Shown here: piece by piece, positions 25,626 to 53,441 of the stretch
How the letters are laid out: each line of letters starts with the position of its first letter
Position numbering within the stretch: the stretch's first letter is position 1
UHGV virus genome: UHGV-0038495
From: a virus
Strand: one strand, 5' to 3'
Length of the DNA stretch: 64,000 bases
Notes under the pieces: model-generated
Told to the model about the DNA's origin: nothing
The model's database searches: none
Seen by the model: only the letters and a program-made list of their open reading frames with translations
Position numbers and translations under genes: made by a program

Positions 25626-26546
25626 TTAGCGCGAGCCGCTAACAGTATTAAATCCAGATGCAACAGAGTCATAAAAATCAATCCAATAAGATTCTAAATC
25701 AGCAAGTTCATTAACATTACCAGTTTGTAAAATCTCAAATGTAAAGTTCTCAACACCAAGAGTAAACAAAGTATTATAGAACGGCGCCGTTCCCTTAGAC
25801 GCCCTTAATCCACATCTTATGTGCTGACGGAATCGTTCTGCAATATCTACACTACGTCCTATGTAACATCTACCATCAGGAATATAAGTTATCTTATAAA
25901 TACCTAAAACTCTATCAGAACCAACAACTCTGTCTATCATTTCTCCTGTTAAACTTTGATAATATTCTTTCCAAATAAGTTTATATAAAACATCCGGATT
26001 TTTTAATTCTAAAGCTAAATTTTTAAGCTTCTCTATATCATTCAAATTTGCAATAGGAACACAAACACGATGATAATCGCGGTCGGCATGTTCTTTTTCA
26101 GCTAATTTGCGTGCAGTATTAGCAGCTTTTATTTTCGCGCGCTCCTCGCTTAAAGTTCTTTTTGCCTGGTTTAATTCTTCTACAATCTTACCTGCATCGG
26201 TTGCATACTCAGCGCGCATCCTATCTAACATTTCTTTTTGCTTTTCCTCTTGCTCAATTTCTAATTGCGCGAGCCTTTCTTTATTTTGCTGTCTTTGCGC
26301 GTCTAACTTACCAGATTCGAATAATAGGTTTTTTGAAAGTTCATCTTGTTCTTTTGTTAGTTCATCAACTTTTTCTTTACCTTTTGCAATTAAATCTTCT
26401 ATATCTTTATAAGTAGTTTTTTTACTTTCTAATTCATTATTCATTAAAGTTATATTGTGATGAATTTTTTTAGCTTTTTTATTTAAAAAATAAAACCACG
26501 CGCCAGTTGCCATTGCAAATAAAATACTAAATATTGTTCCCGCCAT
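25626..26546 (-). CDS. Transmembrane, coiled-coil protein with C-terminal GIY-YIG nuclease domain
   Basis: N-terminal transmembrane segment IFSILFAMATGAWFYFL. About 150 aa of heptad-rich E/K/Q sequence. C-terminal GIYKITYIPDGRCYIGRSVDIAERFRQH...E (GIY-10 to 11 residues-YIG, with Arg, His and Glu). Confidence 0.6.
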   Translation of the reverse strand: MAGTIFSILFAMATGAWFYFLNKKAKKIHHNITLMNNELESKKTTYKDIEDLIAKGKEKVDELTKEQDELSKNLLFESGKLDAQRQQNKERLAQLEIEQEEKQKEMLDRMRAEYATDAGKIVEELNQAKRTLSEERAKIKAANTARKLAEKEHADRDYHRVCVPIANLNDIEKLKNLALELKNPDVLYKLIWKEYYQSLTGEMIDRVVGSDRVLGIYKITYIPDGRCYIGRSVDIAERFRQHIRCGLRASKGTAPFYNTLFTLGVENFTFEILQTGNVNELADLESYWIDFYDSVASGFNTVSGSR

Positions 26547-34262: not shown

Positions 34263-34408
34263 TTTTCACTCCTTTTACTTTCTTCATTAACTTATATAAA
34301 TATTATAACAAATTTTTTATAAGAATGATAATTTATACGTATAACTTCTTAAAAAAGTCAGAATAATAAAAAAAAGAGGAAAATCTATTGAAAGATTTTC
34401 CTCTTTTT

Positions 34409-34777
34409 TTAAATCGGTGGGTTTGTATCATCTATATAACCATTATCTTCTAAAGTAAAGTCCATAGCTTTAGCTTGAGCATACTTAATTCCATCTCCAT
34501 CAGATGAAGTATTTTCATCTCTATTCTTATCTACAACGCGCGCGAGTACAACTGAAACCCCTATGCCTAATGGAGAAAAGATCGCGGTCCAGCAAATTAA
34601 AGAACCTACATAATCCATTTGTATACTTAAAACTGCGAGTCGATATCCTCCGGCTAGTCCAAGCGCGAGAAAAAGTGTAAGGTAAAGCGCGAGACGGTTA
34701 GTAAAACCTAACTTTTTTAAATGTCTAAAAGGCGCGGTTATAGCTCGACGTATCTTATGTTTAGACTTTTTGCTCAT
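34409..34777 (-). CDS. Holin-like membrane protein
   Basis: Two hydrophobic segments (LALYLTLFLALGLAGG and ICWTAIFSPLGIGVSVVLA). Basic N-terminus. Lies immediately downstream of the endolysin. Confidence 0.45.
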   Translation of the reverse strand: MSKKSKHKIRRAITAPFRHLKKLGFTNRLALYLTLFLALGLAGGYRLAVLSIQMDYVGSLICWTAIFSPLGIGVSVVLARVVDKNRDENTSSDGDGIKYAQAKAMDFTLEDNGYIDDTNPPI

Positions 34778-35580
34778 TATGCTTTACCCATGAGTTTTGC
34801 GAAGCGATAAAAGATCGTGACAGCTTGTTCTCTGGAGAGTTGGTCTGCCCACATATAGTTTGGCTCTCCCTTCGCGTCCTTACCCGAACCCGTGACAATG
34901 CCATTCTTGATGGCCCACTCGCGCGCCTCTGCCGAATAAACATTGCAGTCATTATCTTGAAGAGTTTTTCTATACTCTTTCATCATTGAATTGAATTGCT
35001 CTTGTGTCATTTCTTCTTCCTCCTTTTGCGGCGTTTGATTTACGCCCTTTACTCTATTCATAAAATTTTCCCATCTAGCATTACCCTCTGAGGTATGGCA
35101 CATTGGTGCTGGGCATAGCTTCCCGGTCACGGACCAATGTCTTGTCACATTAGAGCTAGGTATATGGTACTTCGACATAAGTGCGCGCGTCAATTCAACA
35201 GCGTGGTTAATAGTTGCTTCCGGTATATAATAATTACCTTTTGAATCAGTATGGCTAACCATTTCTATTGATATTGAATTGCCGTTTGTACATTTTCCTT
35301 TAAGTTGCGCACCACCATTAGTATACTTTTGTCTATCTCCCACCGCATATGCGGCATGGGTATCGGGTACACATTGGTAGATTATATTACCTTCATCACA
35401 AATGTAATGCGCACTAGCCTTGCGGTCTGTGGTGTGGAAATAGTTTGCGTTACCCTTGGCCGTAGCCTTCAGACCGCTATTCGCGGTGTAGTGAAGGACT
35501 ATATACTTGATACTTGATGTAGAGCGAGGGGTTTGGTTATAGTACCTCGCGCGGATTGAGCTGTTTATAGTATAACTCAA
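34777..35580 (-). CDS. Endolysin: N-acetylmuramoyl-L-alanine amidase (Amidase_2/PGRP) with C-terminal SLH-like wall-binding module
   Basis: IVLHYTA, HY.CDEGNIIYQCVPD, AYAVG, ISIEMV, CP. C-terminus AREWAIKNGIVTGSG....MWADQLSREQAVTIFYRF resembles an SLH repeat. Confidence 0.75.
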   Translation of the reverse strand: MSYTINSSIRARYYNQTPRSTSSIKYIVLHYTANSGLKATAKGNANYFHTTDRKASAHYICDEGNIIYQCVPDTHAAYAVGDRQKYTNGGAQLKGKCTNGNSISIEMVSHTDSKGNYYIPEATINHAVELTRALMSKYHIPSSNVTRHWSVTGKLCPAPMCHTSEGNARWENFMNRVKGVNQTPQKEEEEMTQEQFNSMMKEYRKTLQDNDCNVYSAEAREWAIKNGIVTGSGKDAKGEPNYMWADQLSREQAVTIFYRFAKLMGKA

Positions 35581-35603: not shown

Positions 35604-36533
35604 TTATTTAATAGTTTTATATAAAATCCAATCTAAATTAAGATTATCTTTGATTAAATCATAATTCAAATCTTCTCTATTCTTATGCGCTATATTAAAC
35701 TCTGGTTTATATTTATTAATAAGAATAGCTTCTAATAAGTCTAATTCTTTTTTAGAGCCGCAAGTTGTATAGTATATTTCGCCTTTAAAATTATATAATT
35801 TATCTTGAGTATGCTGCTGGACTCTTCTTTTTAGAGAAATTGTCTGTCCAATATAAACAATATTGTCATTAGATACATATTTATATAAATAAAAATTATC
35901 ATTAGAAATATTAGAAACTTCTTCCAAAGAGTTAGGATTTTCATAAAAAGTAAAAGTTTTAGTTGTTTTATCTAAAATAAGAAAACCTTTGTTTATAAGT
36001 TCTTTGAGAACAGTTCTATATGTTGTATGAGAAAAATTACATTTATCAAGAATATCTTTTGTACTTAATGGTTGAGAAAGTTGAGAACTTAAAGAAGAAA
36101 AATAACACCATGCTTTGAATTCATTAGCAGATAATATTTTCATAGCATAGAACATTGCTTGATAAGAAAAAACAATGTTCTGAACATTTTCTTCTTTATT
36201 TATACAAATACTTCTTTGATTTGGCACTTTCTTTGTAATAATATTAAAAGGATCTTCATAAAAATTCCAAATTTTCATTCGTTTTTCTATAGTACTTTCA
36301 GAAGTTTCTTTTAAAAACCCTTTTTCAATCAGCTCTTTAATCGCTTTATTATATTTATATTCAGTTAATCCAGAATTTTTATTAGATAAAGCAAAATCAG
36401 TTGATTGATTCTTAATATAAGAATATAAAACAAATCCTTCAGGAGAAAGACTATTTAAAATTACACTTATATCTTTTATTTCTCCTCTTATAATTCTTAT
36501 AAATTTTTGGTTGTTGAAATTTGTTGTAGCCAT
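35604..36533 (-). CDS. GIY-YIG endonuclease with N-terminal winged-helix repeats (free-standing homing-endonuclease-like)
   Basis: C-terminal FYLYKYVSNDNIVYIGQTISLKRRVQQH....E. Two KxIKELIxKGFL wHTH-like repeats in the N-terminal half. Confidence 0.55.
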   Translation of the reverse strand: MATTNFNNQKFIRIIRGEIKDISVILNSLSPEGFVLYSYIKNQSTDFALSNKNSGLTEYKYNKAIKELIEKGFLKETSESTIEKRMKIWNFYEDPFNIITKKVPNQRSICINKEENVQNIVFSYQAMFYAMKILSANEFKAWCYFSSLSSQLSQPLSTKDILDKCNFSHTTYRTVLKELINKGFLILDKTTKTFTFYENPNSLEEVSNISNDNFYLYKYVSNDNIVYIGQTISLKRRVQQHTQDKLYNFKGEIYYTTCGSKKELDLLEAILINKYKPEFNIAHKNREDLNYDLIKDNLNLDWILYKTIK

Positions 36534-36846: not shown

Positions 36847-37317
36847 TTATTCATTGACCTTAATATTTTTACTACGGCGGGCGCGCACTTTATCATATAG
36901 ATCTGTTTTACTCTCTATATACTCCTTTAATTCTTTTCTCATTACCGTAACCTCTTCATTAATAAACTTTATTTCATCTCTACAGCGATTTGCTGCGCGA
37001 TAAATCATATAACCATTCTTATCTTTTTCTTCTTTTGCATTAACTCCATTCTCTAAATGCTCAAGAATCTTTAACTGCTGACTAAGCTCTATGTCTCTTA
37101 TCCAAGTAAGATAATTAATCATAGCTCTTGTTTCTGCAATAGCAAGACCGGTCTTTTCAGAACAAAACTCCATATCTTCAGGCGCGCACTGTGCTGTGCC
37201 TATAAAAACATTATCTGCAACACAAATAGTTACTGAAGCAAAGCCATCCTCATCAAACTGATACTCTTTCTTAATTCTTCTAATGTCTAACATTCTGTTT
37301 CCTTTCATTAATATCAT
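36847..37317 (-). CDS. hypothetical protein
   Basis: ORF on the coding strand. Last gene of the kinase/phosphoesterase operon. Confidence 0.35.
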   Translation of the reverse strand: MILMKGNRMLDIRRIKKEYQFDEDGFASVTICVADNVFIGTAQCAPEDMEFCSEKTGLAIAETRAMINYLTWIRDIELSQQLKILEHLENGVNAKEEKDKNGYMIYRAANRCRDEIKFINEEVTVMRKELKEYIESKTDLYDKVRARRSKNIKVNE

Positions 37318-37822
37318 TTAAAATTGTTTCTATATTAACTGGACAACAATCATGCGCCTCCAGTGAAACACAATATATCTTCTTATCTTTTATCTCAAAC
37401 TTTTCTTTGCTATGTGTATGCGCTGAAATATTCCATACATTAACGGGGTCGTCAAAATTATTGACAAAAGTAGGGTAATGTGACAGATAAAAACGCGTGT
37501 TCTTAGATGCTTTAAGCCTAGCTCCAAACTGTACGTCCTCAAATATACCTTCTTCAACATAGGTTTTTATCCTTTGGTCTGTGTCATGGTTACCGATAAT
37601 TAAGACCTTATGACCATTCATCTGTTTTATATATTCTATAGCGACAGCTGTATTACCTAGCGCGCAATCTCCTAGTACATAGACCGTATCCTCTGGAGTC
37701 ACGCGCGCGTTATGTCTTTCTACTATTGCTTCATTCATTTCTTCAATAGAATTAAATCCACGTGTTTTCCATATAAAATCTTTATCGTGACAAAAATGCC
37801 AGTCTCCGCAAAACCAAATCAT
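37280..37822 (-). CDS. Calcineurin-like metallophosphoesterase
   Basis: GDWH, VLGDCALG, IIGNHD, SAHTH motifs. Confidence 0.7.
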   Translation of the reverse strand: MIWFCGDWHFCHDKDFIWKTRGFNSIEEMNEAIVERHNARVTPEDTVYVLGDCALGNTAVAIEYIKQMNGHKVLIIGNHDTDQRIKTYVEEGIFEDVQFGARLKASKNTRFYLSHYPTFVNNFDDPVNVWNISAHTHSKEKFEIKDKKIYCVSLEAHDCCPVNIETILNDINERKQNVRH

Positions 37823-37845
37823 AATTTATACCTCCTCTCTTTTTT

Positions 37846-38364
37846 CTAAAAAGTAATACTCCAATACTCCATATTAAAGAATTCTTTCCAAAAGCGCTTT
37901 TCACTATCAGTTACTGGTTCAATAGAATCGGTCTGTTTTGAGATTACTTCAGAACCAACCTGCTCGCGCCCTAATCTTTTCTTGTCTCTTGCAATAGAAA
38001 TAGAAGGTTTTGTATCTATATGCATTACAATAACTTTATAACCATGTTCCTGCAAAGGTTCTTTAATAGCATTTAAAATTTTCTGTCTACTTGAGAAGTT
38101 TAAATGAGTTGCATCTAAAATAACATTATTTATTTCTGCTTTTATAGCTTCACAAGCCAAATGTGCGAACGTCTTAAATACTTTCTTTTCTTTTGCAAAA
38201 TATGCTTCATTCTCTTTTACAAGAGAAAAACGGACTGCATCGCGCGAAATCACTATAGAGTCCGAAAACTTAGACTGAAAATCACGTACCCAGGTAGACT
38301 TCCCCGAGCCACTTATTCCCATCATTAAATATAATTTTTTCATTAATGAAATACCTCTTTCCAT
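37846..38364 (-). CDS. P-loop polynucleotide-kinase-like kinase
   Basis: MMGISGSGKST Walker A. ISRDAVR. Size 172 aa. Operon with the metallophosphoesterase. Confidence 0.55.
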   Translation of the reverse strand: MERGISLMKKLYLMMGISGSGKSTWVRDFQSKFSDSIVISRDAVRFSLVKENEAYFAKEKKVFKTFAHLACEAIKAEINNVILDATHLNFSSRQKILNAIKEPLQEHGYKVIVMHIDTKPSISIARDKKRLGREQVGSEVISKQTDSIEPVTDSEKRFWKEFFNMEYWSITF

Positions 38365-38687
38365 TCATTTTTTTTAATAATTCTTCTCATATTTTCTCTT
38401 CCTACTGGATTAGCAGTATGGAGATGAATTGATATATTGTTTATTCCTTTTTCTTCCATTTTATCAAGTATCTTTATATAATCACCGCCATAAGCTACAT
38501 ATTCTCCTGCATCATGGTCTAAAGATATTTCTTCAATATCATTACGGAAAGCGAGAATTGTTTTTATTGCTTCTTTTGTGGTTATAATCCACATATAACC
38601 CTGTGGAGCAGGTCTTACATCATCTATCCAAAGTTTCATCATTTTATTTTTTCCTCTCTTTAACTTCTGATTGCTATTGCATAGCAA
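38343..38687 (-). CDS. hypothetical protein (first gene after a promoter-operator module)
   Basis: ORF on the coding strand. No motif recognised. Confidence 0.35.
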   Translation of the reverse strand: MLCNSNQKLKRGKNKMMKLWIDDVRPAPQGYMWIITTKEAIKTILAFRNDIEEISLDHDAGEYVAYGGDYIKILDKMEEKGINNISIHLHTANPVGRENMRRIIKKNEWKEVFH

Positions 38688-38691
38688 TCAC

Positions 38692-38735
38692 ACTTTCTAT
38701 AATAATTATAACAAAAAATTTACTGTTTTTGAAAA
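38692..38735 (-). promoter_or_regulatory. Conserved promoter cassette copy, followed by an 18-nt perfect palindrome
   Basis: Minus-strand reading TTTTCAAAAACAGTAAATTTTTTGTTATAATTATTATAGAAAGTG. Downstream lies TTGCTATtgcATAGCAA (38670..38688), then the ribosome-binding site of the 38687 gene. Confidence 0.5.
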
Positions 38736-38771
38736 TAGAAAAAGTCCTACTGTTAAGTAGGACTTAATTTA

Positions 38772-40094
38772 TTACATTTCTTCAAGTATATCTTCTGAAA
38801 GATTGGTCGCGCTTTCTGCTGTTTTTTCTACAATAATACCAGAAATTAACTTAAACAAATAATTTTTTAACTTATATGCTTCAAATTTTGGTGAATTTAC
38901 CTTACGTACAACTACACCTTCTCTTACATGAGTTCCATCTATTGGATCTGGGCCACTAGCATACTGTTCCGCCATCTGATAAACCCAATTACCCGCAGTC
39001 TTAAAACCTAACTGGTCTAAGGTTTCTTGGTCTGGAATAAATGTGCGCAGAAAAAGAGGCGGAGTCTTTATATTCATACGCTCACAATAAATTCTCATTA
39101 CATCTGGTGGTATTTCTATAACATCTTTATCCTCGTTAGTCATTGTCATTCTATAAACATAAATATCATGTTCTGCTGGCGTGCAACCATATGAGAATAT
39201 TATTTTATTACCATACTGCTTCTGATAATCCTTTGGAACTTTTGCTTCTCCCATAATAGGAGTTCCATCATTAGTATAACCAACAATTTCATAATAAGCA
39301 GTTACATCTTTAAATAACTTATCTGCAAATTCCTTTTCGCAATCTATTCTAAATGTATTATCATTATAGTAACCATCGCCTTCTTTGCGCGGATCCAGTA
39401 CCGTTCTCCTAGTACCAGATACATACCCCCAATCATAAACTGGCTTACCTTCGCGCTTAAAGATATGATCTAAGAACGACTTCTTAAATCCCTTTAATGT
39501 TGGAAGATGCGCAGTTCTACCTGAAGTACCATGGAGCTTAAGTGTAATCTCTATAAGGTCGCCTGGCGCGAACCTATCAAGATTATAAGCCAACTGCTGT
39601 GTATCTACATGCTCTTCAAACAAAGGCGCAATAGGAACAGAAAACTTCTTCTTTTTTGGAGTATAAGTACCTTCACGATGCTGGCGGCGCGGAACATACT
39701 TAGTTGCAATAACATGACCATTTAAAGTATCTACACAATCACCTATATTTACTTCGTCAAGATTTATACCTGTATACACAAGAGCAGACAATGGTAAGAA
39801 TAAGCCATCTGATTTTTCTCCTCTCAGTGCGATTGTTTTTACATTTCTCTTGTTAGGGTCTAAGTAACCTCCAATATTATTACCTGCGGCGTCCTTCTTT
39901 CTGCAAAGATTATTTTCTTCACAGAATTCCTCAGAAAGCTGTGCGCCTTCTGAGATATAAACACCTATTTCTCCTTCAGCGTAAGAAAGGTCTACACAAA
40001 TAGTATTACCAAAACATTCACCAAGCTGTAGTCTATCTGCATTTGGATGTTTTCTAAGATTCTTTAATGTTGTTACATAAGCATAATTAGACAT
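38772..40094 (-). CDS. Rnl2/Rnl5-like ATP-dependent RNA ligase with N-terminal tRNA-binding-type OB domain
   Basis: N-terminus LKNLRKHPNADRLQLGECFGNTICVDLS....GVYISEGAQL (Myf/Trbp111-type tRNA-binding OB signature). Motif I ITLKLHGTSG (KxHGxN as in T4 Rnl2). Motif IV REGVVVRK. Motif V YKLKN. Confidence 0.55.
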   Translation of the reverse strand: MSNYAYVTTLKNLRKHPNADRLQLGECFGNTICVDLSYAEGEIGVYISEGAQLSEEFCEENNLCRKKDAAGNNIGGYLDPNKRNVKTIALRGEKSDGLFLPLSALVYTGINLDEVNIGDCVDTLNGHVIATKYVPRRQHREGTYTPKKKKFSVPIAPLFEEHVDTQQLAYNLDRFAPGDLIEITLKLHGTSGRTAHLPTLKGFKKSFLDHIFKREGKPVYDWGYVSGTRRTVLDPRKEGDGYYNDNTFRIDCEKEFADKLFKDVTAYYEIVGYTNDGTPIMGEAKVPKDYQKQYGNKIIFSYGCTPAEHDIYVYRMTMTNEDKDVIEIPPDVMRIYCERMNIKTPPLFLRTFIPDQETLDQLGFKTAGNWVYQMAEQYASGPDPIDGTHVREGVVVRKVNSPKFEAYKLKNYLFKLISGIIVEKTAESATNLSEDILEEM

Positions 40095-40098
40095 TATA

Positions 40099-40917
40099 TC
40101 ACTCTCCTATCATTCTCCAAGATTTATAATACTTATTTCTTTTCTTTGCGGCTTCTAATATTTTTTCTGCAATTTCACTCTCTTCCTTATCTTCGATTTT
40201 CTTCTCAGATATAAGCCATTTTGCTGCTTCATTTGCTGTTTTAAAGGAATGTGTGACCTTCTTTTTAGTTGAAATCGTAACAATGGTTCCGCGCGGCAGG
40301 TCAGATTCAGTCCACTTAGGCTTAGGTTTAGCCTCTTCAAATTCGGTCAAGCGTGCCACTATCTTTTTTATTTCTGCTTTTTTATATTTCTCTTCACAAG
40401 AGTGAATAAACTGTAAAAGTATAGCATCATTTAAAGCATTATGATCCTGTTCTTTTGTATGGTCAAATGCCTGTGCAACTCTTAATAAACCACGCTGCTT
40501 AATATTATATCGCTGACAAAATCTCGTACCATAATCAGTAAGTCCGCCCGCTATATCGCCTAAAATCAGTCTTGCGCACGGGTCACTGGCACAATCCTTA
40601 AACGTACCTTTTACAAAATGAATATCTTCTGAACCCCAACAAAACCATTCGGGATTCCAATTTACTTCATTTTCTTTTGCCTCTTCCTCCTGTGCAAGTA
40701 CCCAATTATAAAATTCATTGAATACTTCTATTGCGCCTTTAGCATTATCAATATCTTCAATAGTAATTCCTGTAAGCTCTGTAATCATTTTACTAATTTT
40801 ATACCTACTCTCTGGCTTTACGAGAGAATAAAAAAAGTGACCATTCTCACAAACCGCGCCAATGGATATAATTCTATGACTAAACTGTGTTCCTTCAAAA
40901 TCTAAAAAATATTTCAT
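40099..40917 (-). CDS. DEDDh (DnaQ-like) 3'-5' exonuclease with C-terminal extension
   Basis: Exo I FLDFEGT. Exo II-like. Exo III HNALNDA. Confidence 0.7.
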   Translation of the reverse strand: MKYFLDFEGTQFSHRIISIGAVCENGHFFYSLVKPESRYKISKMITELTGITIEDIDNAKGAIEVFNEFYNWVLAQEEEAKENEVNWNPEWFCWGSEDIHFVKGTFKDCASDPCARLILGDIAGGLTDYGTRFCQRYNIKQRGLLRVAQAFDHTKEQDHNALNDAILLQFIHSCEEKYKKAEIKKIVARLTEFEEAKPKPKWTESDLPRGTIVTISTKKKVTHSFKTANEAAKWLISEKKIEDKEESEIAEKILEAAKKRNKYYKSWRMIGE

Positions 40918-41730: not shown

Positions 41731-41808
41731 AGTGAAAAAATGGCTTGTATAAAACAAGCCATTTAAAAGAAATTTATGTTTAACACTAATACTAATTAGT
41801 GATTTTAA

Positions 41809-42705
41809 CTATTTTTCAGTTATAAAAGCATTATAGCCTTTAACTCTTAAATCATCTACAACTTTCTGCGCATTTGCTTTTTTGCTAAAAACGCCAACCT
41901 GACATTTATAAAGTCCATTTATAAGTTTACAATAAGCATTTTTATACCCTGCACCAATAGTATCTTCTAATCTTTTTATTCTATCTACAAGAGCAAGGCA
42001 ATTAGTCTGAGATTTAAATGCGCCAACCTGTACTGTATATAAAACCTTTTTAACTGGTTCTTCAATAGGACTAATAGTTGTCTTTCTATAAAAGCAAATT
42101 ACATTATCAACTGCGCGATTGTAGTTCTCTGAGGTTATAGATTCACCTTTGACTAAAATTTTTGTACTGCCGCCGCCATCTAAGTTTATTGCATGAGTAC
42201 AGTGTAAACCAAGCATAATATTAGTTAAGCCAGTAAAAGTTAGACCTCTGCCTTCAACAGCGACAAGAAATATCTTATTAGCATTATAACCAAGTGCAGT
42301 TCTGCGCGCCTTATAATCGAGTTCTTTAGCTATATCAGTCGAAACTCTTACACCATTGCACACAAGTGGAGGATATCCACTGATAAAATCAATGAATTTA
42401 CCTTCATCAATATTACCATATTCTAATTCACCTGTTGCGCGATTAATACCCATACCAATCTTATATTTTACTGTAGTAGAAATTGCTTTATCACCTGTTC
42501 TATACTCAAACATAGTAACGCCGTCAGCCATATTAAACAAGCCGCCATTACATATAACGTCTGGTTTTATTGTCTGCCTCTTGTAAAAAGAGCTTAAAGT
42601 CTCGCGCGGCTGCTGACATAAAGCAAAATGAATCTTTGAAAGTTCTGATTTTTCAAACTCTACTACAGTTATATCCGCATTATTTACATATTTATATGTT
42701 TTCAA
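41809..42705 (-). CDS. Phosphodiester glycosidase (NAGPA/DUF2233) fused to C-terminal SPOR domain
   Basis: CNGGLFNM, RTALGYN, AINLDGGGST (NAGPA core). The C-terminal ~75 aa YTVQVGAFKSQTNCLALVDRIK....GYNAFI is a SPOR-type fold signature. Confidence 0.55.
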   Translation of the reverse strand: MKTYKYVNNADITVVEFEKSELSKIHFALCQQPRETLSSFYKRQTIKPDVICNGGLFNMADGVTMFEYRTGDKAISTTVKYKIGMGINRATGELEYGNIDEGKFIDFISGYPPLVCNGVRVSTDIAKELDYKARRTALGYNANKIFLVAVEGRGLTFTGLTNIMLGLHCTHAINLDGGGSTKILVKGESITSENYNRAVDNVICFYRKTTISPIEEPVKKVLYTVQVGAFKSQTNCLALVDRIKRLEDTIGAGYKNAYCKLINGLYKCQVGVFSKKANAQKVVDDLRVKGYNAFITEK

Positions 42706-42716
42706 TTATTGTCTCC

Positions 42717-43082
42717 TTAATAGCTATCATAAAAGATAACTTCTAAATCTGATTCTTTTTTCATTCTTTTAATTAATTTATTAAGTGTTTTAATATCTCT
42801 TTTAAGACTTTTTCTTATTTCTTCCCATTCCCAAATACTACCACCATTCTCGCTCCAATTTTCTTTATTAAGAGTCTTTAAAGCATAGTATATATCTACT
42901 AAATTATCAAGAGAAAGGGAATATTCAAACAACATTTCATTTGGATCTATACATTCAAAAATCAATCTTCTTATATTCCAACACTTACGCCAGTAACAAA
43001 TTTCTTTTTTTTCTATACCATTTTTATTTTTTATAATAATACCATTATCCAGTCCCATATTTATTCTCCCATTAATCTGCAA
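42717..43082 (-). CDS. hypothetical protein
   Basis: ORF on the coding strand. Confidence 0.3.
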   Translation of the reverse strand: MQINGRINMGLDNGIIIKNKNGIEKKEICYWRKCWNIRRLIFECIDPNEMLFEYSLSLDNLVDIYYALKTLNKENWSENGGSIWEWEEIRKSLKRDIKTLNKLIKRMKKESDLEVIFYDSY

Positions 43083-43226
43083 AAGCTAAGCAAAAAGCAA
43101 AAAGCATAGTTAAAAATTCAGATATTATTATACGGTGCGTAGGAATTTCTTTATCAGATATTGCATCTGAAATACCAAGGAATCCCCATATTAAACCAAC
43201 CGCTATCCATATCATTTTTGTTATCA

Positions 43227-43412
43227 TTAATATGTCTCCTTTTCTCTTAATTTTCTAATCTTTTCTTTCTTTTCATTTAATATCTTTACTCTGGCGCGCG
43301 GCTTATAAAGATTGCAGTGCTGGCAATATCCCGTCATCTCTGCCTCCCTGCCCTTTAAGCAGTTCCCGCGACTTTCATAATAAATGCAAGGTATTAATTT
43401 ATCCTTTGCCAT
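43227..43412 (-). CDS. Small Cys-containing basic protein
   Basis: CIYYESRGNCLKG....CQHCNLY. Confidence 0.3.
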   Translation of the reverse strand: MAKDKLIPCIYYESRGNCLKGREAEMTGYCQHCNLYKPRARVKILNEKKEKIRKLREKETY

Positions 43413-43659: not shown

Positions 43660-43701
43660 AACTTTATAATTATTATAACAAAATTTTTTGAGTTTTTGAA
43701 G
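43660..43701 (-). promoter_or_regulatory. Conserved promoter cassette copy
   Basis: actttataattattataacaaaattttttgagtttttgaag. Confidence 0.5.
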
Positions 43702-43739: not shown

Positions 43740-44588
43740 CTATAAACTCCTGTACTTCATTTTTCTTTTTGCGAACTCTATTGCAAGCATATAATCTTCC
43801 TCATGTCTAGTACCAGAATGTTCTTTATGAACTTTATTTTCAAATTCCTGTAAACTACCACTAAAACATCCGCAAGAAACAATAATTTCACCTCCACCAT
43901 TTGTTGCAAATGTTGTATATCCTTCTCTACTGCCTATTGGACCAACTACAAAATAATCAGTCATTTTTTCAACATATGCTTTACCTGATAGATGTGCATT
44001 GCCAGATATTCTTACAGACCCACTTACCTGTGCTTCACCAGTAACCTGTGCGAAACCAAGTATAGTTGCTTTATCAGACACCTTGGAGTTACCATATATC
44101 CGTGCTTTATCTAATAAAAACACATTTCCAGATACTTGGGCATTATCATATATACGAGAATCGTCATGTATATGTGCATAATCACGAACTATTGCACAGC
44201 CGCAAACACATGAATTTTCATACAGCTGGGCATTTTCTAAAATCTGTGCATTACCATAAACTATAGCACCATTATGGATTTTAGCATTACCAGATATTTG
44301 AGCATTACCGGCTATTCTTACGTCATCTGAGAGTGATGCATTTCCGAAAACTCGTGCATACTGAGATACTAATGCATTATCACGAACTATTGCATTTTCA
44401 CAAACCCAAGCACTATTAGCTACCCAAGCATTACCTTCATGACTTAAATTATCTTCACTTTCAATATACCCACCTAGTTCACCTGTTATGATATTTCTAA
44501 AATCTTTTAATGCTACTATTCGATATAATCTATGTCCAAAAATTTCTATAAAATCATCTTTAAGTAACTCATATTTCCTGTTTACCAT
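43740..44588 (-). CDS. Hexapeptide-repeat (left-handed beta-helix type) protein, long paralog (about 25 repeats)
   Basis: Same N-terminal (LYRIVALKDF..ITGELGGYIESEDNLSHEGNAWV) and C-terminal (VGPIGSREGYTTFATNGGGEIIVSCGCFSG) modules as 4239..4799, with an expanded NAxIxx array. Confidence 0.55.
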   Translation of the reverse strand: MVNRKYELLKDDFIEIFGHRLYRIVALKDFRNIITGELGGYIESEDNLSHEGNAWVANSAWVCENAIVRDNALVSQYARVFGNASLSDDVRIAGNAQISGNAKIHNGAIVYGNAQILENAQLYENSCVCGCAIVRDYAHIHDDSRIYDNAQVSGNVFLLDKARIYGNSKVSDKATILGFAQVTGEAQVSGSVRISGNAHLSGKAYVEKMTDYFVVGPIGSREGYTTFATNGGGEIIVSCGCFSGSLQEFENKVHKEHSGTRHEEDYMLAIEFAKRKMKYRSL

Positions 44589-45089: not shown

Positions 45090-45656
45090 TTATTTTTTAT
45101 CAGACTTTTCTTTGCAGTCACAGCAATCTCCGCATGGAACTGTAGATGAAACTGTTTTTGTACTATGGTCATGGTTGTCATAAGTATTGCATTGATCAGG
45201 GTGAAACATTAATGTTTCCGCTTCATTTATTAATTGTTGCAAATAAGAACCATAAATTAAATCATCTTTCTCTACATGAATTGAAGCACTGCCATTTGCA
45301 CTTTCTGTTGGCAAGACTCCTCCTTTATTTAAAGCTTTTGCAACAGCATTAAAAGATTCTGCTGTTAGAAATTGTTCATTTGGAAAAGAAGAATCTTCAA
45401 TAAAACGCCACCTCGTAACGTGTGTTTTTTTACTTTTATTATATCTAGCGTCATCAATATATTTCATAAGAGCAATCCAATCTTTTCTACTCCAATAACC
45501 AGACTCTCCATGTCCAATAACTTCATTGAATTGAACGCATCCCCATTCTGGTAAAGAAATTTGACTTTTTACAGTTTGCCCATGTTCGCAAAGATTTTGA
45601 CATGAATCACAACGAGTACAAATTTCTTCTGTTACTGTTTTGCCTTGGTCGCCCAT
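45090..45656 (-). CDS. Cys-rich protein
   Basis: N-terminal CTRCDSCQNLCEHGQTV. C-terminal CGDCCDCKEK. Immediately downstream of the radical-SAM gene. Confidence 0.45.
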   Translation of the reverse strand: MGDQGKTVTEEICTRCDSCQNLCEHGQTVKSQISLPEWGCVQFNEVIGHGESGYWSRKDWIALMKYIDDARYNKSKKTHVTRWRFIEDSSFPNEQFLTAESFNAVAKALNKGGVLPTESANGSASIHVEKDDLIYGSYLQQLINEAETLMFHPDQCNTYDNHDHSTKTVSSTVPCGDCCDCKEKSDKK

Positions 45657-45657
45657 A

Positions 45658-46893
45658 TTATAACCTCCTTGCTATAATACTATTGAAATACCTTATAAAA
45701 GAATCACTATTACTATCTCGCATATTTTCTATTAAATTGCGCGCCAAGTAAAAATTCATTAACTTCCAAGAGCAATCCATATTTGCATGAGTATATAAGT
45801 TACCAAACAAATCCATATTAGTAGAAGGACAAGATTTATTCTTACATATTTCTTTTCTTGGACAATCTATACATAAAGAAGGCGTTTCGCAGATTACAAT
45901 AGAAGAAGAATTAATAAATCTATTTATAAGATTAATATGTCTTGCTTTCTTATATCCAGTTTCTATGTTTCCTAAGTAAAACTTACTTCTCTTACCATGC
46001 GTGGCTTGTTCTTGACATCCATAGATAGAACCATCATAACCTATTCCCACGCAATCTTCACCCATTCCACAGTGATGCGCGCTGCGGCTATAAAATATTT
46101 CCTGCTCGCACTGAATATTTTCCTTAATAGCATCTGAAATTTGAATAAAATCTATAAATGGCTTCTTATTATCACTAAAGACTTTATCATAAAATTCATA
46201 AATCATGCCTAATTGTTCAAAAAGTATCATTTTACTCTCAGCCGTCCAGTTTTCTCGAACGTTTGGGGTAAAAAAGCAGTTAGAAAAACCCATTCGTAAA
46301 GCATAAATAAAATTATCATAAAGAAAACATGCACTTTGCGGGGTTATTGTAGCTCGGAAAGTAACTTCTGGGAATAATTTTATCATTGCAGGAATAATAT
46401 CTTGTAACTTCTCAAAGCTACTATTACCATCTTTACAAGGTCTGTTCATATCCTGAGTCTGCTTCGCGCCATCCATTGAAAAATGAGGATAAATATTATG
46501 TTCTTTCATCCATAAAAGACGTTTATAAGTTAATAAAATTCCATTTGTAGTAATAGAAAATGTGAACATCTTAGGATATGTTTGCTCAGCATAGTTTACA
46601 ACAGGAACAATAATAGAATCCCAGCAAAGTAATGGCTCACCACCGAAGAAGGTTATTCTACCTTCAGCTTTATTTTGCTCTTGTATATTATTAGCTAAAT
46701 AATCTACCGCGCTTTTTGCTGTGTCTAAAGTCATATAATGAGGATTCTGCTCAGTAAAACAATAAACACAACAATTATTACAATCATCTGTTACATTAAA
46801 AACAGCATTTGTAGGTTTATGTTTTAATTTATCATTTTGCTGCGCTTTTTGCTGGCGCGCGCCTATAATCTTTTTTCTTTCTTCTTTTGTCAT
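45658..46893 (-). CDS. Radical SAM enzyme with C-terminal SPASM/twitch-like Cys clusters
   Basis: DDCNNCCVYC contains Cx3Cx2C. GGEPLL. C-terminus CGMGEDCVGIGYDGSIYGC and CIDCPRKEICKNKSCP auxiliary-cluster-like motifs. Confidence 0.7.
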   Translation of the reverse strand: MTKEERKKIIGARQQKAQQNDKLKHKPTNAVFNVTDDCNNCCVYCFTEQNPHYMTLDTAKSAVDYLANNIQEQNKAEGRITFFGGEPLLCWDSIIVPVVNYAEQTYPKMFTFSITTNGILLTYKRLLWMKEHNIYPHFSMDGAKQTQDMNRPCKDGNSSFEKLQDIIPAMIKLFPEVTFRATITPQSACFLYDNFIYALRMGFSNCFFTPNVRENWTAESKMILFEQLGMIYEFYDKVFSDNKKPFIDFIQISDAIKENIQCEQEIFYSRSAHHCGMGEDCVGIGYDGSIYGCQEQATHGKRSKFYLGNIETGYKKARHINLINRFINSSSIVICETPSLCIDCPRKEICKNKSCPSTNMDLFGNLYTHANMDCSWKLMNFYLARNLIENMRDSNSDSFIRYFNSIIARRL

Positions 46894-51866: not shown

Positions 51867-51958
51867 TGGAGGAAGGAGTGAGATTCGAACTCACATGCCG
51901 AAGAACTTCGACCTAACGCTTTAGCAGAGCGCCCTCTTTACCATTTGAGTACCCTTCC
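51867..51958 (-). tRNA. tRNA-Ser (GCU), class II with long variable arm, CCA encoded
   Basis: Acceptor GGAAGGG/TCCTTCC. Anticodon stem GCGCU/AGCGU, loop CU-GCU-AA. 7-bp variable-arm hairpin GTCGAAG-TT-CTTCGGC. T arm GTGAG-TTCGAAT-CTCAC. Ends TCCA. Confidence 0.8.
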
Positions 51959-52312
51959 TTATCTATATCCTACTTTATCATACATTGGCGCGAATGTCTT
52001 TACTCTATTATGAGTTACAATACCTAACAATTTCTTTTTATTATCTTTTTCTTTAATATAAATCTTGGATTCATCTGTACTGACCGCGCCTCTACCTTTA
52101 GGGTACGTAAACCGCTTCGCGCATTTTTCAAGATATTTCATATCAACCGTTGGTATTTCCATGCGCCCAGCAGAACTAATTATAATGAATACTGGTAAGC
52201 CATCCTTGTTAAAATAAGGATTGGCTTCAGCAATCTTACCACACCAATCTATATGAAATTCAGAATGAACATCTGTAGTTATAAGGTGTGTCTTTATCTT
52301 TACCTCTTGCAT
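51959..52312 (-). CDS. hypothetical protein
   Basis: ORF on the coding strand between tRNAs. Confidence 0.35.
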   Translation of the reverse strand: MQEVKIKTHLITTDVHSEFHIDWCGKIAEANPYFNKDGLPVFIIISSAGRMEIPTVDMKYLEKCAKRFTYPKGRGAVSTDESKIYIKEKDNKKKLLGIVTHNRVKTFAPMYDKVGYR

Positions 52313-52314
52313 AT

Positions 52315-52521
52315 TTATCTCCTTTGTAAGTTTGCGAAAAAATCTGTTATATCTTTATTTTCTTTTCTTGTTTCTATTGTTTCACTTGGTTCTATACTAT
52401 TTGTTTTATGATTTGGATTATTTTCTTTCCAACATTTCAAAAAATGTCTTGACATTCTACTTTCTTTTTCATTTTCAAATTCGCATTTACATATTGGGCA
52501 AATATACATTTTATTCTCCAT
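52315..52521 (-). CDS. Small zinc-ribbon protein
   Basis: CPICKC....H..C. Confidence 0.35.
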   Translation of the reverse strand: MENKMYICPICKCEFENEKESRMSRHFLKCWKENNPNHKTNSIEPSETIETRKENKDITDFFANLQRR

Positions 52522-52875
52522 TTTAAGTTTTCAGGTTTAGATTAAATTGGCGGCGGATGAAGGTAACGCTCCTTCTCTTTTTGGGTCAAAGCCAAATGTA
52601 CTAACTTTTATACGAATCCGCTATATTAAAGCGGGTTCTAAGGTCAACCCGCAGACCGTTCAGAAAGGGGACAAAAAATGAATAAAAAAATATCTTCAAA
52701 TGGAAACTTAAGCCTTTCTAAGTTTCCTCTCTAATTTTCTCTTTACTCCCGGAGATTTCATATTAATTTCTCTCGCGTTAAGTTTTGCAAGTCGCGCACT
52801 ATAAATTGCTTTCTTCTGTTCTCTTGTCATAATCTTTCTCCTTTAGTATATCTTCAAATTCTTTCCTTTTTTTAT

Positions 52876-52950
52876 TGGTGCGCCCGGACGGTTACGATCC
52901 GACCTAATCGAAATTAAAAGTTTCGTGCCTCTCCACTAGGCTACGGGCAC
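52876..52950 (-). tRNA. tRNA-Lys (UUU), non-canonical T arm
   Basis: Perfect 7-bp acceptor GTGCCCG/CGGGCGC plus ACCA. D stem GCCT/AGGC. Anticodon stem CGAAA/TTTCG, loop CU-UUU-AA. T stem has one T-T mismatch and the T loop is ATCGTAA rather than TTCRANY. Confidence 0.5.
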
Positions 52951-52954
52951 ATGT

Positions 52955-53030
52955 TGGTGGAGGTTAAGAGATTCGAACTCTTGACCTTCTGCGTGCAAAG
53001 CAGATGCTCTCCCAACTGAGCTAAACCCCC
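52955..53030 (-). tRNA. tRNA-Ala (UGC), CCA encoded
   Basis: Acceptor GGGGGTT/AACCTCC with the G3-U70 Ala identity pair. D arm GCTCAGTTGGGAGAGC. Anticodon loop UU-UGC-AC. T arm AAGAG-TTCGAAT-CTCTT. Confidence 0.8.
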
Positions 53031-53367
53031 ATTTATTCCTTTTTCCTCCGTCAGAGCAGATTAAGGATAACTGGCACGCGTACTATAAGGATTTTCTCCC
53101 TCAAGCGGAAAACCCGTTAGAAAATAACTACTTCTAATTTAGCAAATCTATACCTTAGACCTATCGAAGAAACATTTTAAAGCAATCGACTTCCGCGGGT
53201 GCAACTACTTTGCAATGCTACCGTATCTTTAGTGATGTGTATAAATCAGTATCCGAGAGACGCCACGAGGAGGCATTAGAAGACTTTTTATCTCTCATAA
53301 GTGGAAGCTGCAATCTCCCACTTTATCTATCATAATGTGAGGAGGTGAATTATGATACATTTCATGC

Positions 53368-53441
53368 TGGAGCCAATAACGAGAATCGAACTCATAACTA
53401 AGCCTTACCATGGCTTTGTTTTACCTTTAAACTATATCGGC
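53368..53441 (-). tRNA. tRNA-Thr (GGU), CCA encoded
   Basis: Acceptor GCCGATA/TATTGGC (one G-U). D arm GTTT-AAAGGTA-AAAC. Anticodon stem AAGCC/GGCTT, loop AU-GGU-AA. T arm ATGAG-TTCGATT-CTCGT. Confidence 0.7.

Follow-up and report, generated by a model that had tools for sequence, protein, structure and literature searches.

Phosphodiester glycosidases of the NAGPA family are known from vertebrates, in which the 'uncovering enzyme' NAGPA (structures 6PKU and 6PKY; human cryo-electron microscopy structure, PMC13474241) cleaves the glycosidic C1-O bond of N-acetylglucosamine (GlcNAc)-1-phosphodiesters. In the human enzyme, the phosphate is held by a DGGGS loop that is invariant in evolution; the essential residue D286 lies in this loop, and the substitution D286A abolishes activity (PMC13474241). 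SPOR domains bind glycan strands from which the stem peptides have been removed by amidases, and they localise to septa (PMC6895207). Here we describe a gene in which both domains are found in a single polypeptide. It lies on the minus strand of a 64,000-nucleotide stretch of the virus genome UHGV-0038495 (the window; all positions given here are those of this whole stretch), and two contigs from human-gut metagenomes, 139,874 and 142,038 bp long, carry it. With a probability of about 0.55, its product is a holin-dependent accessory cell-wall lysin that cleaves sugar-1-phosphate linkages of wall polymers. A preliminary description, made by reading the letters, had placed the gene exactly on the open reading frame, and the motifs it quoted are all present in the protein (CNGG at residue 52, RTALGY at 135, NLDGGGS at 174, YTVQVGAFKSQ at 223, and GYNAFI at 290).

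First, the N-terminal domain was recognised by profile, by fold, and by catalytic residues. Pfam NAGPA (PF09992) matches residues 75-206 with 71.6 bits (E-value 1.2e-19), and the gathering cut-off of this family is 25 bits. An alignment of 41 homologues with identities of 47-94% (alignment A1) was the basis of a profile, of the conservation counts, and of an AlphaFold2 model. Searched against the PDB, the profile finds vertebrate NAGPA chains with an E-value of 1.5e-12, and the match spans from the NGGFF to the DGGGS motif. The model has two domains and a predicted local distance difference test score (pLDDT) of 89.8, and the NAGPA domain exceeds 80 throughout. In Foldseek searches of the PDB, this model matches guinea-pig NAGPA (6pku; E 1.7e-11, template modelling (TM) scores 0.57/0.64) and a DUF2233 protein of Bacteroides ovatus (3ohg; E 3.6e-10, TM 0.58/0.60), and by these matches it contains the three-subdomain alpha/beta catalytic core of NAGPA. 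The loop D176-S180 corresponds to 286-DGGGS-290 of human NAGPA. It is invariant in 41/41 aligned homologues, as are N53, G55, R135, R197, and D200, and it is also found in 130 of 149 more distant representatives. By sequence alignment, the conserved E128 takes the place of the GlcNAc-binding E226 of the human enzyme.

The C-terminal domain is likewise supported. Pfam SPOR (PF05036, gathering cut-off 21 bits) matches residues 222-296 with 40.3 bits (E 4.2e-10). The SPOR domain of CwlC matches with an E-value of 4.6e-7 from the single sequence and 1.5e-12 from the 41-homologue profile. In NCBIfam, the SPOR part alone was matched, by RlpA and FtsN models below their cut-offs. When secondary structure is assigned to the model with DSSP, the domain shows the RNP-like beta-alpha-beta-beta-alpha-beta topology (strands 223-230, 258-262, 265-273, and 293-297; helices 233-244 and 276-288), and Foldseek pairs it with CwlC (1x60, TMt 0.73) and RlpA (6i09, TMt 0.68). 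One highly conserved residue, Q270 in RlpA, and a basic patch that includes K47 in CwlC have been described in SPOR domains (PMC6895207). By alignment, Q226 of the phage protein corresponds to Q270 (the Gln of beta1, position 8 of the hidden Markov model), and K267 corresponds to K47. Both residues are invariant in 41/41 homologues. The linker between the two domains varies in length and sequence across the family, as seen in the same alignment. Both domain assignments are far beyond chance and are independently supported by profile and model. Thus, the two-domain architecture put forward in the preliminary description holds: the NAGPA and SPOR profile matches, whose absence it had named as a refutation, are both present above their cut-offs, each fold is predicted, and the catalytic Asp, the beta1 Gln, and the basic Lys are conserved.

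Compared with vertebrate NAGPA, the phage protein shares the fold and the motifs NGGFF, RTA(L/I)G, and DGGGS, and it has the conserved Glu that aligns with E226. However, identity is only ~19%, there is no propeptide, EGF stalk, or membrane anchor, and a counterpart of R316 is not evident. The phage protein is fused to SPOR and predicted to be cytoplasmic in a bacterial host. Its substrate cannot be a lysosomal glycoprotein. The DUF2233 protein matched above, BACOVA_00430, is a bacterial PF09992 member with the same core fold and DGGGS at ~20% identity, but it is an exported, single-domain protein of unknown function. On the SPOR side, Bacillus subtilis CwlC and Amidase-SPOR endolysins of clostridial prophages (L007, L018) carry C-terminal SPOR domains with 32-45% identity, whereas their catalytic domain is an N-acetylmuramic acid (MurNAc)-L-Ala amidase instead of NAGPA. 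The same two-domain architecture is found in two UniProt entries from uncultured human-gut phages, A0A8S5PPV0 (316 aa) and A0A8S5Q173 (297 aa). Their structural matches in BFVD cover 295-298 aligned columns with 28-30% identity, and these entries have only automated names ('Phosphodiester glycosidase', 'Sporulation related domain').

The gene model is well founded, because AAGGAG precedes the TTG start and all aligned homologues begin at an equivalent Met-Lys. In hydropathy analysis, no signal peptide, lipobox, hydrophobic segment, or transmembrane segment was seen in the protein (maximum KD19 1.13). Since there is no export signal, the wall would be reached only after holin action. The layout, with an N-terminal enzyme, a linker, a C-terminal wall-binding domain, and no signal peptide, is endolysin-like modularity. 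Searches of Pfam and NCBIfam detected no peptidoglycan-hydrolase family in the protein, and NAGPA is its only catalytic domain. Because no peptidoglycan-cleaving domain was detected, it is filed as an accessory lysin and not as an endolysin.

The partners of the NAGPA domain point to the cell wall. With this domain alone as query, 956 cluster representatives were found at E<=1e-3. Among the 113 nearest, the wall-binding partners are SPOR (30), SH3_3 (29), SLH (16), PG_binding_1 (10), and LysM (8), and the hydrolase partners are Amidase_2 (13), Amidase_3 (6), and a few M23, M15, GH25, NlpC/P60, and CHAP domains. The nearest representative (55% identity) consists of NAGPA and Amidase_2, and other architectures include NAGPA-Amidase_2-SPOR, NAGPA-M23, X-NAGPA-PG_binding_1, and large SH3 or SLH surface proteins. 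Judged from sequence, these partners are the signature of an exchangeable catalytic module in wall-active enzymes. Similar proteins have been noted by others: a survey in 2026 reported CHAP-NAGPA-SH3_3 among gut-phage endolysins (PMC13284279), and NAGPA-like prophage 'depolymerases' were modelled in Curtobacterium (PMC9862828).

A fusion connects the NAGPA domain to the amidase of this phage. As the preliminary description had stated, the activity is distinct from that of the amidase endolysin, for which the window has a separate Amidase_2 gene. In the protein P0136, encoded by an SPbeta-like phage with adjoining RecJ and RNA ligase genes, a neighbourhood similar to that in the window, NAGPA, Amidase_2, and SH3 are joined in one polypeptide. 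Its NAGPA half is 43% identical to the NAGPA domain of the window, and between its amidase half and the separate endolysin of the window, identity is 46% (E 8e-41). In the window, by comparison, there are two genes, and NAGPA has its own SPOR. Consecutive parts of one profile, phrog_18955, also match the NAGPA-SPOR protein and the amidase of the window. The amidase half of another fusion, P0122, was examined as a possible relative of the window amidase and is not similar; only the P0136-type fusion is. A cultured example is the endolysin of Flavonifractor phage Chenonceau (WAK79829.1, ON453904), a 42 kb phage with a clostridial gut host. Its N-terminal NAGPA domain (Pfam NAGPA 40.1 bits) is 27% identical over 92% of the window domain, and it is followed by Amidase_3 in place of SPOR. 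The gene for a Hol44 holin comes directly after it, and its endolysin label is HHpred-derived. By domain association, by the two-gene fusion, and by this endolysin beside a holin, a wall-directed, lysis-associated role is supported for the NAGPA-SPOR protein as a prediction.

The same architectures could also be taken to mean that the NAGPA-type domain is a peptidoglycan glycosidase, that is, an N-acetylglucosaminidase-like lysin and not a sugar-phosphate hydrolase. By mechanism, members of the family are glycosidases, and they have a pocket for GlcNAc (PMC13474241). Stand-alone endolysins are built in the same way, from a catalytic and a wall-binding domain, many relatives consist of NAGPA and a wall-binding module alone, and NAGPA-fold viral proteins have been given automated labels, among them 'N acetylmuramidase' and 'cell wall hydrolase'. 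However, the strictly conserved, phosphate-cradling DGGGS loop argues for a phosphate leaving group, and no Pfam peptidoglycan-hydrolase signature is present. Moreover, a true peptidoglycan hydrolase accompanies the domain wherever this can be checked, either fused or as a separate gene; in one relative (L087), a Phage_lysozyme2 gene adjoins the NAGPA-SPOR gene. This fits an accessory role, and the glycosidase alternative is unlikely.

NAGPA domains are also found in tail modules. In SPbeta, yomE (L093:5344-7278; AF020713.1 24182-26116) encodes a NAGPA domain (96.8 bits, residues 128-305) with a pectate-lyase-like beta-helix, and it is situated between the tail genes yomF-I and the lysis cassette blyA/bhlA/bhlB. 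YomE is likely a tail-associated depolymerase of sugar-phosphate polymers; no literature on its function was found. In Kurthia phage P1, a podovirus, a 538-aa 'phosphodiester glycosidase family protein' lies between the lower collar and tail proteins. Both are NAGPA proteins of Bacillota phages and presumably act during entry, but they are large tail-module proteins without SPOR. Large NAGPA-fold proteins are found in Staphylococcus, Bacillus, and Lactobacillus phages as well. From these cases, the protein of the window could be thought of as a virion-associated entry enzyme, which would be borne on the tail and remove sugar-phosphate wall polymers, as receptor or barrier, at adsorption or penetration. 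This is very unlikely. The protein is just 298 aa long and has no beta-helix, tail-attachment module, or oligomerisation module. Its gene is in the replication region in all relatives examined and not in the structural module, with replication and RNA-repair genes as neighbours. In addition, SPOR is a partner typical of the wall-binding modules of endolysins and autolysins (PMC13284279), and denuded glycans are buried or septal, so that they make a poor target from outside an intact cell. The preliminary description had left the role between entry and lysis. The lysis part is supported indirectly, and the entry part is disfavoured, as the protein lacks domains of the tail type and the structural module lies elsewhere.

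If the protein is an accessory lysin, the following course of events can be proposed. It would be made in the cytoplasm without an export signal, and when the holin opens the membrane, it would be released to the wall together with the Amidase_2 endolysin. The phage endolysin and host septal amidases would produce peptide-free glycan strands, and the C-terminal SPOR would dock on these strands stripped of stem peptides. The NAGPA-type domain would then hydrolyse sugar-1-phosphate linkages of the GlcNAc-alpha-1-phosphodiester type. The walls of Gram-positive bacteria bear teichoic acids and many secondary polymers that are joined to O6 of MurNAc through a linkage unit with GlcNAc-1-phosphate, and in some wall polymers the backbone itself is made of sugar-1-phosphate. 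Candidate targets would be of two kinds: the linkage unit by which teichoic acids or secondary wall polymers are fixed to MurNAc-6-OH, and polymers with sugar-phosphate repeats. Stripping of anionic polymers would complement the amidase, and the outcome may be faster disintegration of the wall, clearance of receptor-bearing debris, or both. We infer the holin dependence, the substrate, and the cooperation with the amidase via denuded glycans. A narrower proposal is that the protein cuts the GlcNAc-1-phosphate-6-MurNAc linkage unit and frees whole chains of teichoic acid or secondary wall polymer, guided by SPOR to amidase-stripped strands; it would be the first hydrolase to reverse the LCP-ligase reaction. 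We regard this as rather doubtful.

Several points weigh against the reading as an accessory lysin. The NAGPA-SPOR gene is not beside the holin. It lies 6.2 kb upstream of the amidase-holin pair, outside the lysis cassette, and in the relatives examined it is always amid replication and nucleotide-metabolism genes. It appears to be under the same sigma-A-like promoter type as the units of the replication region, which suggests early or middle transcription and not late. Such timing is harmless for a cytoplasmic protein, yet it is not what a dedicated lysis gene needs. At the active site, the phosphate-binding R316 of human NAGPA aligns to Y206/R207, where no Arg is conserved and position 207 is mostly Leu; the invariant R135 or R197 might stand in for it. 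As for substrates, vertebrate NAGPA acts on terminal GlcNAc, whereas the GlcNAc of the linkage unit is substituted. Literature searches for an assayed NAGPA-family enzyme from bacteria or phages returned none. Finally, the NAGPA domains in tail modules (SPbeta YomE and the Kurthia podovirus) show that the family can also serve entry.

The transcription unit of the gene bears on two further explanations. A highly conserved promoter-like element, TTCAAA-N14-TGnTATAAT, occurs in nine copies in the window (Table 1) against 0.24 expected, and all copies are intergenic and on the coding strand (for example, TTCAAAAACTCAAAAAATTTTGTTATAAT). It is probably the early or middle promoter class of the phage, of the host sigma-A type with an extended -10. 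Terminator-like sites are enriched as well (14 in the region against 3.9±2.0 expected). NAGPA-SPOR is the last gene in a five-gene unit bounded by one such element and by an intrinsic-terminator-like hairpin. Between this element and the gene, no further such element and no terminator were found, and the element probably drives the unit.

The enzyme might have the same chemistry with a benefit that comes after lysis. As a receptor-destroying enzyme, it would strip receptor polymers from debris, and perhaps from neighbouring cells, and so keep progeny from adsorbing to dead material. Without a signal peptide it would be released at lysis only, SPOR would keep it bound to debris processed by the amidase, the gene is apart from the amidase-holin pair and possibly transcribed earlier, and the NAGPA tail protein of SPbeta suggests a part for sugar-phosphate polymers in the adsorption of this lineage. 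This case is purely inferential, however, and NAGPA-amidase fusions within endolysins point to the lysis step itself; we consider it quite unlikely. The promoter type has also been weighed for a modulator of host division or sporulation that would act during infection, with SPOR taking it to septal or engulfment peptidoglycan. Septal localisation has been described for SPOR domains (PMC6895207), CwlC is sporulation-specific, and expression appears to be early or middle. Nevertheless, the protein lacks a signal peptide, a lipobox, and a transmembrane segment and cannot get to the wall until the holin has acted, and no conserved membrane partner gene adjoins it in relatives. A modulator of this kind is highly improbable.

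Returning to the accessory lysin and its surroundings, a 51-aa protein with two hydrophobic segments is encoded two genes upstream of NAGPA-SPOR in the same putative unit (43072-43227, minus strand). It is holin-like by size and topology, and it is not kept beside the gene in distant relatives. It was considered as a dedicated holin and set aside, as nothing comparable is conserved there; across the neighbourhoods in relatives, no conserved membrane-protein gene flanks the homologues. Just upstream of the unit (43740-44588, minus strand), a gene encodes a beta-solenoid protein of 282 aa. This protein has hexapeptide, YdcK-repeat, and bactofilin-like matches and a strong match to phrog_7964, which is of unknown function.

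Table 1. Positions of the NAGPA-SPOR gene, its domains and putative signals, and the amidase-holin pair in the window.
Feature	Position	Strand	Description and basis
NAGPA-SPOR gene	41809..42705	-	open reading frame of 298 aa plus TAG stop, TTG start; Pfam NAGPA and SPOR
NAGPA-type phosphodiester glycosidase domain	42079..42705	-	residues 1-209
DGGGS loop D176-S180	42166..42180	-	catalytic and phosphate-binding motif of the family
Flexible interdomain linker	42055..42078	-	residues 210-217; sole segment with pLDDT <50
SPOR domain	41812..42054	-	residues 218-298; Pfam, model topology, Foldseek
Ribosome-binding site AAGGAG	42713..42718	-	8 nt 5' of the TTG start; read directly in the sequence
Intrinsic-terminator-like hairpin	41738..41764	-	11 bp stem and T run, 45 nt past the NAGPA-SPOR stop codon
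Promoter-like element TTCAAA-N14-TGnTATAAT	43672..43700	-	one of nine copies; inferred driver of the unit ending in NAGPA-SPOR
All copies of TTCAAA-N14-TGnTATAAT	25588, 38705, 41701, 43672, 53976, 54191, 55054, 60200, 61955	all -
Amidase_2 endolysin	34777..35580	-	Pfam Amidase_2 84.9 bits; PHROG endolysin and amidase families; inferred partner
Holin candidate	34409..34777	-	122 aa, two hydrophobic segments; position and topology only
Strong terminator	34369-34410	-	directly after the holin candidate

The amidase-holin pair has features of its own. The endolysin has a C-terminal stretch of ~75 aa (residues ~190-267; …YSAEAREWAIKNGIVTGSG…LSREQAVTIFYRF…) without a Pfam match. By eye, this stretch is possibly SLH- or Amidase02_C-like, and it may be a wall-binding module. 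The holin candidate had no family match in Pfam and PHROG searches, and no spanin genes follow it. Homing-endonuclease genes of the GIY-YIG type (with helix-turn-helix and NUMOD parts) are found at 35604-36533 and 25626-26546. In near-identical contigs (L001, L002, and L004), such genes differ in presence and position around the pair, and in L004 one sits between the amidase and the holin candidate.

All genes of the window are on one strand, and its G+C content is ~0.33. It encodes a PolC/DnaE-type DNA polymerase, DnaB, primase, RecJ, NrdD, ligase, and a Sak4-like protein. RNase T, RNA ligase, a kinase, a phosphatase, gyrase B, and RNase H are also encoded, and there are five tRNA genes at 51867-53441. 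By its DNA polymerase, which most resembles SPbeta YorL (38.7% identity over 98% of the length) and the polymerases of ~140 kb Enterococcus phages, the phage has SPbeta as its nearest cultured relative. The source is a ~140 kb SPbeta-related phage, and the window is its replication region. Polymerase kinship, the lack of a spanin, and Shine-Dalgarno usage point to a monoderm Bacillota host, a Gram-positive gut bacterium that is probably clostridial. Two other gene groups were observed in the neighbourhood. At 37280-40917 (minus strand), genes for an RNase T-like exonuclease, an RNA ligase (440 aa), a cREC_REC protein, an AAA_33/Zeta-toxin-like kinase, and a Metallophos phosphatase form a cluster that resembles the T4-type RNA (tRNA) repair set. 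At 45090-46893 (minus strand), a Cys-rich protein of 188 aa with CxxC clusters at both ends comes immediately after a radical-SAM enzyme (411 aa; Radical_SAM and Fer4_12), and the two may be a maturase-substrate pair.

Of 533 homologues, the best 120 all have NAGPA and SPOR, with lengths of 281-306 aa, on contigs of up to 163 kb. Four phages of greater distance (47-58% identity) likewise have the gene amid replication and nucleotide-metabolism genes. Cluster look-ups gave no informative names, and the precomputed Pfam annotations of the collection already list both domains. In GenBank phages, megablast with the 9 kb neighbourhood gave no match and tblastn with the protein gave nothing at E<=1e-5; weak matches came up only when the NAGPA domain was searched by itself at a relaxed threshold (E<=5), and these were then verified with Pfam. 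Contigs of the genome collection were scanned with SPOR-derived patterns, and mostly SPOR-only proteins were returned, the nearest of which are Amidase-SPOR endolysins of clostridial phages and prophages. Only two full-length copies were found in that collection, both on phage-like contigs of ~150-160 kb in metagenome-assembled genomes, and because the contigs are phage-like, they assign no host. One homologue with 39% identity (L006:8001-8888; JAFZGJ010000195.1, a 151 kb contig of a metagenome-assembled genome from buffalo rectum) has three in-frame TAG codons. When TAG is read as sense, coding at this locus in open reading frames of >=100 aa rises from 3237 to 5341 aa, which indicates a TAG-recoded phage. 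The in-frame TAG was also considered as a marker of late expression and was dismissed, as TAG codons occur in most genes of this contig.

The idea that NAGPA domains of phages act on wall glycopolymers is not new, and such domains in phage lysins and depolymerases have been catalogued computationally (PMC13284279, PMC9862828). The NAGPA-SPOR architecture is common and already in databases with its function inferred, and the annotation can be recovered with standard Pfam thresholds. What is new in this analysis is the amidase fusion link, the census of domain partners, the assignment of YomE, and the anatomy of the transcription unit. Almost all domains considered in catalogues of phage lysins and in enzybiotic engineering are peptidoglycan-cleaving ones, and the NAGPA subtype is a recurrent shuffled module in lysins of Gram-positive phages. 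If phosphodiester-linked polymers are indeed removed, this would explain how teichoic acids and secondary polymers that shield peptidoglycan are cleared by some phages. The enzyme would then offer a means of detaching wall polymers in intact form and, as an accessory module, of strengthening lysins directed at gut Clostridia. If the linkage unit itself were the site of cleavage, the family would represent a new catalytic class of phage lysin, a 'polymer-detaching lysin', widespread in gut phages of Bacillota.

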